A stretch of 64,000 bases of DNA, from positions 27,377 to 91,376 of the forward strand of contig JAHLWS010000068.1 of the NCBI GenBank assembly GCA_019057795.1, in the 5' to 3' direction. The DNA is from Promethearchaeota archaeon. Its GTDB lineage: Archaea; Asgardarchaeota; Lokiarchaeia; Sigyniarchaeales; SOKP01. The notes beneath the pieces are model-generated. The model did not search any database and had not been told where the DNA came from. It saw only the letters and a program-made list of their open reading frames with translations. Positions 60,931 through 63,677 of the stretch are shown in pieces; positions within the stretch are counted from its first letter, which is position 1, and each line of letters opens with the position of its first letter. The position numbers and the translations under genes were made by a program.

Positions 60931-61749
60931 TTAGTCTGTATTAGGATTATCTGATTTTTCTTCAAGATCTTCTGCTTCTTCTTTAAGCTCTTCAGCTTTT
61001 TCTTCAAACTCTTCAGCTTTTTCCTCGAATTCTTTTGCTTCTTCTTTAAGCTCTTCAGCTTTTTCTTCAAACTCTTTAGCTTTTTCTTCAAACTCTTTAG
61101 CTTTTTCTACTTCAAGTTCTTTCGCGTCTTCTTTAAGTTCTTTCGCGTCTTCTTTAAGTTCTTTCACGTCTTCTTTTAGCTCTTCAGCTTTTTCTTCAAA
61201 CTCTTCAGCATCCTCTTTAAGTTCTTTCGCGTCTTCTTTTAGCTCTTCAGCTTTTTCTTTAAACTCTTCTGCATCCTCTTTTAGTTCTTCTGCATCCTCT
61301 TTTAGTTTTTTTGCTTTTTTCTCTTTAAGTTTTTTTGGTTTTTTCTCTACTTTCTCTTTAAGCTCTTTTGATTTTTTCTCTACTTTTACTTCAAGTTCCT
61401 CTGCTTTCTCGACCTTCTCTTTAAGTTTTTTTGCTTTTTTCTCTACTTTTTCTTCAAGTTCTTCTGCTTTTTCAACTTTCTCTTCTAGCTTTTTTGCTTT
61501 ATCAAGAAAACTTGGTTTTTTAAACCCTGCCCAAGCTATATTAACAATAGCTCCAGTTGTCATTATTATTACAAATATGGCTATATATAATGTTAGGCCA
61601 TCTTGAGGTTGAGGAAAAAATTGTAAAACATAGTTCATCCAACTAACCATCCAAGAACCCATAGGTGATACTATCGGGAATAAAAAAGTTAAAATGGCTG
61701 CAACAAAATCCGCAATAGCTTGAACTAACTCAGGTGTTTGAAAAATCAC
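60931..61749 (-). CDS. Membrane-anchored protein with a long heptad-repeat (KAEELKE/DAKELKE) coiled-coil tail
   Basis: Hydrophobic N-terminus followed by about 190 aa of E/K/A/L repeats. Confidence 0.8.
   Translation of the reverse strand: MIFQTPELVQAIADFVAAILTFLFPIVSPMGSWMVSWMNYVLQFFPQPQDGLTLYIAIFVIIMTTGAIVNIAWAGFKKPSFLDKAKKLEEKVEKAEELEEKVEKKAKKLKEKVEKAEELEVKVEKKSKELKEKVEKKPKKLKEKKAKKLKEDAEELKEDAEEFKEKAEELKEDAKELKEDAEEFEEKAEELKEDVKELKEDAKELKEDAKELEVEKAKEFEEKAKEFEEKAEELKEEAKEFEEKAEEFEEKAEELKEEAEDLEEKSDNPNTD
60955..61500 (-). repeat. Coding tandem repeat array (21-bp units distally, 33-bp units proximally)
   Basis: Repeated ttctttaagctcttcagcttt / ttctttaagttctttcgcgtc units. Confidence 0.85.
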
Positions 61750-62261
61750 GCTTTATCGATACCTCCTAACTGTTGTTTATATCTCTTCTCTCTAATTTTT
61801 TTCCGATTAATAATGAAATCGAAAAAATCGTATCCTTTAAGAATTATTGTAAGAAAATAAATGCCCATATACAGCATGACCATATTTTGAACATTTACAG
61901 CTATAAAACCAAAATTTGCTATTTCAATTACTATTTCGAAGCGTACTTCAGTAGCTCCGCTAAACTTATACGACCATATATACAAGCAATTTAAAATTAT
62001 TTGAATTAGCGAGAAAGTACCTTTTCTAATTGACTGTTTAGGAGAAGAATAGGTAAAAAATGCGCATGAACTAATCAGTAATCCAAATGCTGAAACCCAA
62101 AAAATTATTCTCTCATAATCTGGTTGTTCAAGTATAATGTCAACGCCGAGTATCTGAATTTCCCTGATTAAAGTAAAAGTGACAAATGGAATAACTATCG
62201 TTGTTGTTATATAAACACTCAGATATATTAAACCTTTAAAAATATTAAAACTACGCCCCAT
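61746..62261 (-). CDS. Hypothetical 4-TM membrane protein
   Basis: Hydrophobic segments; its stop overlaps the next gene's start. Confidence 0.75.
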   Translation of the reverse strand: MGRSFNIFKGLIYLSVYITTTIVIPFVTFTLIREIQILGVDIILEQPDYERIIFWVSAFGLLISSCAFFTYSSPKQSIRKGTFSLIQIILNCLYIWSYKFSGATEVRFEIVIEIANFGFIAVNVQNMVMLYMGIYFLTIILKGYDFFDFIINRKKIREKRYKQQLGGIDKA

Positions 62262-62273
62262 TTATATCACCCT

Positions 62274-62849
62274 CTATGGATAATGACCTGCCGGAAAGTT
62301 TATTATATTAACTTTAAAAGTATACAGATTAAGTGAATAAGATGCGCTAAATTTAAGGCTCGCATGAAATTCTAAAGCATAAGGTGTTCTATACCAATCT
62401 ACTTCTGTTAATGGATCTGGTAAATTATCAATAATAAATCCATCCGATGCCGTACCAGTGAAATTCGATTTTAGGAAATCTCCATGAGCTATGGTTCCAA
62501 TAAGTTCCTCTTTATCAAAGATTATTACAGTAGTCGTTTCATTTAATGGTGTTGATGCATTACCGTAAGTCAAATAAACTTGAAAACTTAATGTAATATT
62601 CGTTAAATCATATACTCCAGGATTTGAGATATTATAAGGAACATTAATATACATTGCACTTGGATTAGTAATATCAAAATTTGATGTTATATCTCCATCA
62701 GGAATGTTAATATTTTGTACGGAAGGATCAAAAATTGTCATAGCAGAGAAACCACCTAAAAGAGAGACAGCCGATAACGATAACGTGAAAACTAGCAAAA
62801 AAATTCTAATAGTCCATCTAAAGACACGTGATATCCTCATGTACATCAT
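62274..62849 (-). CDS. N-terminally anchored beta-rich protein (LEA_2/WHy-like)
   Basis: One TM, then INVPYNISNPGVYDLTNITLSF (N.N motif). Confidence 0.6.
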   Translation of the reverse strand: MMYMRISRVFRWTIRIFLLVFTLSLSAVSLLGGFSAMTIFDPSVQNINIPDGDITSNFDITNPSAMYINVPYNISNPGVYDLTNITLSFQVYLTYGNASTPLNETTTVIIFDKEELIGTIAHGDFLKSNFTGTASDGFIIDNLPDPLTEVDWYRTPYALEFHASLKFSASYSLNLYTFKVNIINFPAGHYP

Positions 62850-63083
62850 TTTTTATTTAGATATTTAAGATTAACAATAGATAGATTAAAGGAATATATA
62901 AATTTAATTTATTGATTAAAAGTTGTTTATATTGAAAAAAATTTTCAATAAAAAAATCTATCAAATCTCCTATTGCTTCTGCTTGTCTTTCGTTAGACCA
63001 TTTAAGCATTGATATTTATAAATTTATTGTCAAGTTAGATAAAAGAAGGGAAGTCTTTAAATACGGCACGGGCACAACCGTGT

Positions 63084-63120
63084 ATCACTTTATCTTCAAA
63101 AATTTTCAAGATAAGTTCAT
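63084..63120 (-). promoter_or_regulatory. Eukaryote-type (Loki) SECIS element in the 3' UTR
   Basis: RNA 5'-AUGA AC UUAUCUU GAAAAUUUUUG AAGAUAA A GU GA U-3': AUGA/GA core, 9-bp stem with one bulged A, and an A-rich apical loop. It starts 3 nt after the stop of a UGA-containing ORF. Confidence 0.75.
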
Positions 63121-63123
63121 CTA

Positions 63124-63498
63124 TTAACCGTATACATTTGAATTTTTTTTTATGAACAACAAACCTACTTTTTTACCTTCGACTTCTCCTATTGCCGCAT
63201 CCACTATAATTAATGGTTTTTTTTCCAATTCAGGAATGATTTCCTTTTCGATATATATTTCCACACGCTGATTTTTAAAGTTTTCGTTTTCAATGTCAAT
63301 ATCCTTCCATTCGACAAAATCGTGGTCGTCTAAGAGTTTGTGTTTTTCTACTAACTCGACAAAGTTACCACAGAAGCACATTGTTCAGGATTCAGCTGAA
63401 TGATAAAAAAGTACTACTACTAATTTTTCTGATTCCATTTTTTGTTGTTCTTCAAAAATATAATCCAAAGCCGTTTTTGAGAACGATAATTTAAACAA
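63124..63498 (-). CDS. Putative selenoprotein, 124 aa, Sec38 in a U-x-x-C-x-C motif (HesB/IscA-like fold suspected)
   Basis: TTG at 63498 after a GGTGA RBS; MFKLSFSKTALDYIFEEQQKMESEKLVVVLFYHSAES-TGA(63385-87)-TMCFCGNFVELVEK... The ORF track shows only the post-UGA part. Confidence 0.78.
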
Positions 63499-63677
63499 TT
63501 TTCACCAAAATCCTTTTTTTATTAGTTTGTATTTACTAAAGTATAAATTTTAAAATTATTATTTAATTTAAATCTTAAGTTTACAAGTTAAGTATCAAAA
63601 AAAAAGTTTTTCTTAATATAACTAACGACATTAATGAATTTAAAGACGTTGAAGAAAAAAGTAGGGGGGATGGATTC

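Follow-up and report, generated by a model that had tools for sequence, protein, structure and literature searches.

The question raised by the locus described here is whether a TGA triplet inside a small gene of an Asgard archaeon ends translation or is decoded as selenocysteine (Sec). The window, that is, the whole stretch of DNA that was analysed, comprises 64,000 nucleotides (nt) of contig JAHLWS010000068.1 from a Promethearchaeota archaeon, and the gene lies towards its far end on the minus strand, at 63124..63498. In the following, G000 denotes the genome of the window (4.95 Mb), family f1 one GTDB family of Lokiarchaeia-type Asgard archaea, L-numbers the homologous loci that were fetched, P-numbers the protein relatives and C-numbers in G000 its contigs. 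The original prediction, made from the sequence alone, had proposed a hidden selenoprotein followed directly by a eukaryote-type selenocysteine insertion sequence (SECIS). Sequence comparison and a predicted structure make it very probable that this is a real Sec-decoded gene whose product has a HesB/IscA-type fold; this judgement leaves aside the biochemical role, which is weighed separately below.

Reading frame and conservation of the UGA codon

All coordinates of the original prediction were found to be correct when the minus strand was read again. The coding sequence opens with a TTG start codon (63498-63496), which stands 3 nt behind the motif GGTGA (63502..63506), a putative ribosome-binding site that also precedes the start in homologous loci, and it runs through 124 codons to the TAA at 63126-63124. 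Its single in-frame UGA, codon 38 (63385..63387, minus strand), follows 37 sense codons, and after it the frame reads T-M-C-F-C-G-N. The open reading frame (ORF) of 85 amino acids listed by the gene caller (63381-63124) is, as had been proposed, the C-terminal tail of this 124-residue read-through frame. The truncation by gene callers that had been anticipated is borne out by the protein databases, in which relatives are either cut to an 85-amino-acid 'hypothetical protein' or have the TGA read as Trp, and the genes of the family are thus mis-annotated in public records.

A word-indexed search returned 22 truncated relatives of about 85 amino acids together with three full-length relatives carrying 'W' at position 38, and in all three this W38 is a TGA translated under a Mycoplasma-type code. 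Pattern scans of genome and metagenome collections yielded 47 loci (L027-L073), in 41 of which TGA occupies the homologous codon at protein identities ranging from 94% to 43%, with the N-terminal 37 residues kept and the motif U-[TLM]-x-x-x-C-G-[ND]; across the wider family, about 45 related loci and the species genomes described below, the UGA position is held down to 21% protein identity. The homologues, all of which come from metagenome-assembled genomes (MAGs) of Promethearchaeota or Hodarchaeota, have either TGA or Cys at position 38 and are conserved on both sides of it. The 25-sequence protein alignment has no more than four invariant columns, and Sec occupies one of them. Codon 38 is TGA in all 15 orthologues that align without gaps, and codons 2-37 of the same orthologues show 82, 8 and 131 differences at codon positions 1, 2 and 3, respectively, in comparisons that are not independent of one another; such a third-position bias is the signature of a translated frame. 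Among 400 Asgard species genomes the gene was found in 53, all inside family f1 (52 of the 134 sampled), and 67 of the 71 matches hold exactly one in-frame TGA.

These data bear on two other explanations of the TGA. It might be an ordinary stop codon, in which case the products would be an 85-residue protein starting from Met40 and at most an unrelated 37-codon ORF, and the hairpins downstream would act as a terminator. The 85-amino-acid entries of public annotation, the ATG after the TGA in the window and the T-run behind the hairpins agree with such a reading, but at the protein level the 37 codons ahead of the TGA are conserved and show the third-position bias given above, and many orthologues lack a Met after the TGA: Met40 is replaced in orthologues, which read T-A, T-I or T-T, and in subfamily B, which reads S-G, so that the part downstream of the UGA often has no start codon of its own. 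Moreover, the Cys homologues are continuous single ORFs, the one predicted domain requires both parts (residues 2-123 of the AlphaFold2 model against residues 1-97 of IscA), and the SECIS features are common to known selenoprotein genes and missing in the Cys forms. We therefore regard an ordinary stop as highly improbable. The other explanation, an error of sequencing or assembly or else a pseudogene, has nothing in its favour beyond the bare stop codon in a MAG, and since the same TGA recurs in independent assemblies from many studies and genera, in more than 50 genomes, we count this explanation as refuted.

The protein family

Returning to the gene as a Sec-decoded one, a profile search of 1.84 billion representative proteins detected only 54 relatives, among which three groups can be told apart. 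The window protein belongs to subfamily A, whereas subfamily B is distinguished by the motif ...Y-Q-Y-S-x-R-S-U-S-G-x-F-C-Q-D, with C-Q-D or C-T-D in place of C-G-N; TGA was present in both subfamily B members checked. Cys replaces Sec as a single residue in P0029 (= L073), P0045, P0055 and P0058 and is also found at the Sec position in P0074, and the loop of P0069 and P0075 has the form CxxCx5CxxC at the Sec site, which suggests that metal is bound there. P0045 and P0069 are continuous single ORFs under translation table 11. In the 400-genome scan, three intact Cys paralogues without a stop stand in tandem with UGA copies.

The original prediction had placed the UGA in the first position of a redox CxxC motif (UxxC). 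This part could not be upheld: at position 41, the second Cys of such a motif, homologues have either Cys or Ser, and the conserved partner of Sec38 is Cys43 (codon at 63370..63372, minus strand), in the motif U-x4-C-G-N. Cys43 is nearly invariant in the two protein alignments (A1 and A2) and is kept in subfamily B too (U-S-G-x-F/Y-C). The residue ahead of Sec is Ser, Thr or Asn, and no Cys lies upstream of Sec.

Several loci carry more than one copy. L043:2917-3970 holds a Sec gene of subfamily A in tandem with a Sec gene of subfamily B, each with its own SECIS, and L076:2034-2881 combines subfamily A with a Cys form possessing the CxxCx5CxxC loop, while triplets in the order U/Cys/U were observed at G170:C10:78360-79679 and G175:C334:32609-33898. 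The C-terminus was a further point of variation: the window protein ends in ...N-V-Y-G, and the codon after this Gly is TAA, TGA, TGT/TGC (Cys) or TAT/TAC (Tyr) among orthologues (stops of L032, L034, L036, L051-L054, L057, L060, L061 and L070; window 63124-63129), the position being variable. A TGA at this place is most likely a stop, since it lies only a few nt from the SECIS and the minimal-distance argument of Mariotti et al. (2016; PMC4989117) applies.

The SECIS element behind the gene

The SECIS core (63085..63120, minus strand) starts 3 nt after the stop codon and consists of AUGA, a 9-bp stem, an 11-nt apical loop and GA. The AUGA (63120-63117) lies 267 nt from the UGA, the 5' arm ACUUAUCUU (63116-63108) pairs with the 3' arm AAGAUAAAGU (63096-63087), which has one extra, bulged nucleotide, the loop GAAAAUUUUUG (63107-63097) is A-rich with a final G, and the GA occupies 63086-63085. 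A small GC-rich hairpin, CACGG/UUGUGC/CCGUG (63067..63082), follows directly 3' of the core, and the whole is enclosed by a closing helix in which AUACGG (63128..63133), belonging to the last codons Tyr-Gly, pairs with CCGUAU (63061..63066). Closing helix, SECIS stem-loop and GC hairpin together form a three-way junction. Further 3', a T-rich tract (63041..63060) likely marks the end of transcription, and a T-run stands behind the element in most homologous loci.

The element in the 3' untranslated region (3'UTR) is more conserved than the protein, being near-identical where the proteins are 67-73% identical. Where it does change, in distant loci, the changes in the stem are compensatory: for example, CUUAUCUU/AAGAU-AAG is replaced by GCAAUCUU/AAGAUUGC, UUAAUCCU/AGGAUUAA or ACUAACCUU/AAGGUUAGU. 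When pairs were counted on a MAFFT alignment with a structure given by hand and two bulge-ambiguous pairs omitted, 91% of the cells were paired as compared to 34-49% with slid partners, changes on both sides occurred in 9 of 18 pairs, and the observed score was reached by none of 500 shuffles. From the same alignment RNAalifold recovered only the five upper pairs, since the position of the bulge is not consistent in it, and for this reason the full structure was counted with a hand-given bracket string. In the closing helix, 20 sequences have C-G and six have U-A at pair 7-89 of RNA alignment A3, a switch that arises from a synonymous change of TAC to TAT matched by a downstream change of G to A. 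For the 3'UTR of the window gene itself, the SECIS shape is not seen in the minimum free energy (MFE) fold, the stem being AU-rich and weak.

The AUGA/GA stem of the original prediction is present, conserved and covarying, although the 'bulged A' described with it turned out to be a variable bulge that may be A, U, G or C or be absent altogether. The CACGG/CCGUG hairpin at 63082-63067 was found as described, and in divergent loci its structure is kept with a changed sequence. No such element lies behind the Cys-form genes in L073, L076 (P0069) and L079, while in L075, whose UGA form is a very distant one, a perfect element stands 16 nt after the stop. The SECIS element covaries, accompanies every UGA form and occurs with UGA forms only.

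Specificity of the element and comparison with known SECIS

In the lokiSECIS of Mariotti et al. (2016; PMC4989117), AUGA and GA flank a 9-bp stem with an 11-nt loop that is A-rich over its first five positions and ends in G. The window element fits this description and also the type I eukaryotic SECIS-like (eSECIS-like) model of Huang et al. (2024; PMC11227280); the criteria taken from the two papers allow an upper stem of 7-15 bp. A strict pattern, which demanded ATGA, a 9-bp stem with at least 8 pairs, an 11-nt loop having AAA at positions 3-5 and G at its end, and GA or AA behind the stem, matched only 13 sites on both strands of the 4.95-Mb genome, the window site among them. Six of the 13 lie behind VhuD-, PrxL- or VhuU-type UGA genes, two have nothing recognisable beside them and are apparently chance matches, and the remaining four are taken up at the end of this account or lie among the sites described there. 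The SECIS match of the window is more than chance.

An independent covariance model, R1, was built solely from the six SECIS elements of the VhuD, PrxL and VhuU genes of G000. On the 64-kb window it ranked the site of the gene first, and on relatives (L041, L042, L043, L065, L068 and L071) it found the orthologous site directly behind the stop with 26-31 bits (best 30.6) and E values from 1e-3 to 9e-5. Rfam at gathering threshold gave no match over the whole window.

In most of the MFE folds of the VhuD, PrxL and VhuU SECIS elements of G000, closing helix, stem-loop and GC hairpin are likewise arranged in a three-way junction, for which reason we consider the small hairpin to be part of the element, and an equivalent of the GC hairpin stands behind most other SECIS-pattern matches of the genome. 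No description of such a three-way junction was found in the main text of PMC4989117 or PMC11227280. The extended architecture was noted at C5:42551, C15:5831, C22:32532, C24:23608, C42:32148, C60:5180, C63:23732 and C87:36210 of G000 and at 63133-63061 of the window.

The window gene thus shares with the lokiSECIS genes VhuD, HdrA, VhuU and PrxL the design of the SECIS and its closeness behind the stop, as these are given by Mariotti et al. (2016), and its extended three-way architecture is that of the G000 VhuD, PrxL and VhuU elements. By contrast, its protein family is a different one, and its element has a bulge in the 3' arm, a G at loop position 1 and a U at loop position 10, which lowers its score with a model of the known elements. 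Many new covarying SECIS sequences are gained from the present family, including the conserved three-way-junction context.

Selenocysteine machinery of the genome

The components for decoding Sec were all detected in G000. SepSecS is encoded at C73:91991-93292 (484 bits), an EFSec/SelB-like gene lies 3.4 kb from it (232 bits), a PSTK-like gene scored 143 bits, and there are two SelD genes with an in-frame TGA in each; PSTK and EFSec remained below the curated cut-offs, yet were clear best matches. A BLAST search with a tRNA-Sec of the same genus located the tRNA-Sec gene just upstream of SepSecS (G000:C73:91757-91908), interrupted by two putative introns at 91773-91805 (D-arm region) and 91865-91894 (T-loop). 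After splicing, the 89-nt tRNA shows a 9/4 cloverleaf with a 9-bp acceptor, a 7-bp D stem and a 4-bp T stem, the anticodon UCA and a long variable arm. It resembles in its fold the tRNA-Sec of a genome of the same genus without the introns, from which it differs by compensatory changes in the acceptor stem. This tRNA was missed on the genome by Rfam RF01852 (below cut-off), by ARAGORN with or without intron mode and by two regular-expression/fold screens; the two introns account for the failure of Rfam and ARAGORN. ARAGORN found no tRNA in the window.

Following the established archaeal/eukaryal pathway, we propose that Sec-tRNA-Sec would be made by PSTK and SepSecS with selenophosphate derived from SelD, and that the EFSec-like factor, directed by the 3'UTR SECIS 267 nt downstream, would deliver this tRNA at the UGA.

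Predicted fold and sequence affinities

AlphaFold2 was run with the 25-sequence alignment and gave a model with a mean predicted local distance difference test score (pLDDT) of 80 and a predicted template modelling score (pTM) of 0.75. The order of elements in the model is beta strand, helix, beta strand, the loop with Sec38 and Cys43, further strands and one helix. In a Foldseek search against the PDB, the best nine matches were all IscA, SufA or 'putative Fe-S biosynthesis' proteins, with a best E value of 3e-3. VIA-align superposed the model on E. coli IscA (1r94_A) with Z 8.1 over 97 residues at a root-mean-square deviation of 3.7 A, and on SufA, IscA with a [2Fe-2S] cluster, DsrR and other HesB-type proteins with Z 7.7-4.5. 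Altogether 7-10 chains of the IscA/SufA/HesB type matched over the full length with Z 8.1-4.5, as compared to Z 2.6-2.8 for the next unrelated chain, and this gap holds both in the re-ranking and in a Foldseek-independent scan of 48,161 chains. The predicted protein adopts the IscA/SufA/HesB (A-type carrier) fold in the model, and the resemblance to HesB/IscA-like proteins suspected by the original prediction is consequently borne out at the level of the predicted fold.

At the sequence level, the PF01521 hidden Markov model (HMM; gathering score 26.3 bits) did not match the window protein at E values up to 10, and no NCBIfam family matched it either, TIGR01911 (cut-off 66.35 bits) included. 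Two of 22 family members match PF01521, the best with E 1.3e-3, and TIGR01911 is matched only by the Cys paralogue P0045 (22.1 bits, E 1.8e-4). Those families that are touched by more than one member are of the HesB/IscA type only and are reached via Cys paralogues: TIGR01911, PF01521, NF038090, TIGR00049 and NF041239. When IscA proteins of Asgard archaea were compared by hhalign, the probabilities were 1% and 13% and hence not significant; the alignment at 13%, used for the position of the column only, sets the Sec column on the Cys of GGCxG. Two other affinities were discarded: DUF5893 matched the window protein with E 0.004 and no other member in the same way, and thymidylate kinase, from a profile search of PDB sequences, was a chance match only.

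The original prediction had also noted a likeness to 'CC/Se-motif' proteins, which did not hold. Four Cys-form members match the CC/Se motif family (NF041239, Moorella) weakly, the best with E 0.009 and 16.1 bits against a 40-bit cut-off, and the motif of that family is CxxU, whereas the window family has Ser, Thr or Asn before Sec and no Cys upstream of it.

Several observations weigh against the gene being Sec-decoded with a HesB/IscA-type product. The window SECIS reached only 16.7 bits with R1 (E 0.16), which is not significant alone; the low score is likely due to the bulge and to the U that replaces A before the final loop G. The core deviates in L033 (AUAA) and in L037, L038 and L062 (AUGU), and the contamination estimate of the MAG is 7.5%. 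On the protein side, the model is at its least confident in the loop with Sec (pLDDT about 62), sequence homology to HesB/IscA lies below every curated cut-off, and the C-terminal Cys ligands (CxC) of A-type carriers are absent, so that the canonical IscA mechanism is not possible. The neighbouring genes, which encode a P2-type cation ATPase and proteins that look membrane-associated by eye, provide no link to Fe-S clusters or selenium.

As to the deviating cores themselves, AUGU was found on three independent contigs of one clade (L033:3364-3457, L037:2644-2737, L038:3373-3466 and L062 being the four deviating loci), and apart from the core the elements of these loci are intact, as is the in-frame TGA. 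Such cores may be tolerated variants or inactive copies.

Possible roles of Sec38 and Cys43

The window protein has the layout of IscA/SufA (PF01521), namely beta1, helix, beta2, ligand loop and beta3, with a predicted fold that matches over the whole length, and by eye the acidic residues of its strands V-Y-I-E-K and I-V-D-A resemble those of vvvD and lDy/lDf in IscA. Sec38 would be situated in the beta2-beta3 loop, where A-type carriers hold the first cluster-ligand Cys, with Cys43 five residues further on. By comparison with the three ligand Cys of IscA/SufA, one after beta2 and two in the C-terminal CxC, the window protein would possess only the first position, as Sec, and it has an additional Cys five residues after Sec. 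Canonical PF01521 genes were found neither in G000 nor in 25 sampled genomes of family f1, and they occur in 6 of 151 sampled Asgard genomes of other families with 1-4 copies each.

We tentatively propose that Sec38 and Cys43, probably contributed by two protomers, would bind or pass on a metal, an iron-sulfur (Fe-S) cluster or sulfur/selenium species, and the four-Cys loop of some paralogues is in keeping with such a site. A role as a metal or Fe-S carrier is given somewhat less than an even chance here. If it holds, the protein would, by analogy, correspond in Asgard archaea, and specifically there, to the 'HesB-like' selenoproteins known from methanogens and bacteria.

Alternatively, the protein may be a thiol/selenol oxidoreductase in which Sec38 and Cys43 cycle through a selenenylsulfide with a thioredoxin-like reductant, the HesB-type fold serving as a scaffold only. 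A redox function with a Sec/Cys pair is assumed for most uncharacterised selenoproteins (PMC13188914), the spacing U-x4-C is kept in both Sec subfamilies, and the C-terminal cluster ligands of IscA are missing, all of which suits such an activity. UxxC or CxxU would nevertheless be the usual spacing, and the fold does not resemble that of thioredoxin; moreover, the single-Cys homologues L073, P0045, P0055 and P0058 lack the second Cys, so that the couple is not universal in the family, and the paralogues with a four-Cys loop resemble metal sites. We consider an oxidoreductase possible, though rather unlikely.

DsrR is an IscA-fold protein working in sulfur metabolism, and a similar function as a sulfur/selenium relay or carrier, for instance one that supplies SelD or a thiolation pathway with persulfide or perselenide, may be envisaged for the window protein. 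The structural matches include DsrR (Z 6.3), both SelD genes of the genome contain Sec, and a single reactive Sec/Cys on a flexible loop would fit; on the other hand, the conserved neighbourhood is devoid of selenium- or sulfur-metabolism genes and the sequence shows no similarity to DsrR or Tus proteins, which leaves a relay as an improbable explanation.

Relation to known selenoprotein families

The standing of the family among known selenoproteins can be assessed from published lists. For Lokiarchaeota, Mariotti et al. (2016; PMC4989117) give five selenoprotein families and report no further candidate from a SECIS-based scan. Huang et al. (2024; PMC11227280), whose search of more than 400 Asgard genomes was aimed at known families, arrive at seven, and a 2026 review (PMC13188914) counts 11 archaeal families, with HesB-like selenoproteins in methanogens only. 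The window family is absent from the archaeal and Asgard lists searched, in line with the original prediction that the protein is not one of the classical archaeal selenoproteins, and no prior description of it was found in the searchable literature. Surveys directed mainly at known families could not see it, and the gene adds a family to the seven of Asgard archaea and the 11 of archaea.

The nearest comparison is with the HesB-like selenoprotein (TIGR01911) of Methanococcus maripaludis and anaerobic bacteria, which is likewise a small, single-domain protein of the HesB/IscA superfamily with one Sec. The Sec of the window family may take the place of the conserved first Cys of the HesB domain, as the weak hhalign alignment (13%) would have it and in agreement with the topology of the predicted fold. 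The motif of the HesB-like selenoprotein is UxGP (PMC13188914), whereas that of the window family is U-[TLMS]-x-x-x-C-G-N, with C-Q-D or C-T-D in subfamily B, and no Sec-containing member of the window family matches TIGR01911 or PF01521. Furthermore, the window family is decoded by a eukaryote-like lokiSECIS and not by a methanogen-type or bacterial SECIS, and it is confined to one Asgard family, while the HesB-like selenoprotein is not among the seven Asgard families listed in PMC11227280. The occurrence of Cys and Sec paralogues side by side, together with a eukaryote-like SECIS, provides a ready-made system for studying what Sec adds.

Genomic neighbourhood

Three co-oriented genes downstream (60931..62849, minus strand) stay beside the selenoprotein gene in other genera. 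Their products are a 191-amino-acid protein with a hydrophobic N-terminal stretch, a hydrophobic protein of 171 amino acids and a Lys/Glu-rich protein of 272 amino acids, none of which had a meaningful Pfam match; the genes correspond to synteny clusters F2, F3 and F4, present in 13-16 of 18 loci. In homologous loci a gene for a P2-type cation ATPase is placed upstream of the selenoprotein gene in divergent orientation, and this arrangement with the ATPase and the three downstream genes holds across genera. In the window, the place of the ATPase gene is taken at the contig end (63678-63998, minus strand) by an open-ended ORF of at least 106 amino acids without a Pfam match.

Further candidate selenoproteins in the genome

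A simple SECIS-first scan of this one genome brought up at least two more conserved small ORFs containing UGA, and R1 matches lie directly behind both. The first encodes a protein of 69 amino acids at L100:357-563 (minus strand; G000:C63:23756-23962) with two CxxC pairs, zinc-ribbon-like by eye, and four in-frame TGAs in the contexts ..D-K-M-U-I-V.., ..H-G-U-T-U-V-L-C.. and ..V-P-U-L-L.., followed by an element of the lokiSECIS type. Relatives were found in 20 of 135 family genomes belonging to seven genera, at identities down to 41%, and all matches but one have the four TGAs. Judging from these sequences, it is a candidate multi-Sec selenoprotein, which was not found in the literature.

The second, of 65 amino acids, is encoded at L101:330-527 (plus strand; G000:C26:53929-54123) and has a hydrophobic stretch and the motif G-G-G-U-L-C. 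One in-frame TGA is present in 34 genomes, almost all of the same genus, and a SECIS lies directly behind the stop, scoring 46-49 bits with R1 in four genomes.

These two proteins also enter into a wider reading of the window gene. In it, the gene would be the founding member of an Asgard-specific selenoprotein family, with three subfamilies that often stand in tandem, which replaces the missing canonical A-type carriers in these Lokiarchaeia and has a selenium-ligated metal or Fe-S centre; taken together with the two small proteins, it would mean that Asgard selenoproteomes exceed by far the seven families known from homology searches. Taken as a whole, we hold this combination to be doubtful.

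Two further sites were of a less clear nature. The SECIS-pattern match at C24:23608 (minus strand) has no recognisable ORF upstream. At L102 (G000:C78:176200-176950), a SECIS-like site at C78:176805 (plus strand) scored 25 bits with R1, and an ORF ends there in ...P-D-V-G-C followed by TGA TGA about 110 nt before that site, with the frame staying open nearly to the element; this locus may represent a selenoprotein or a chance match.

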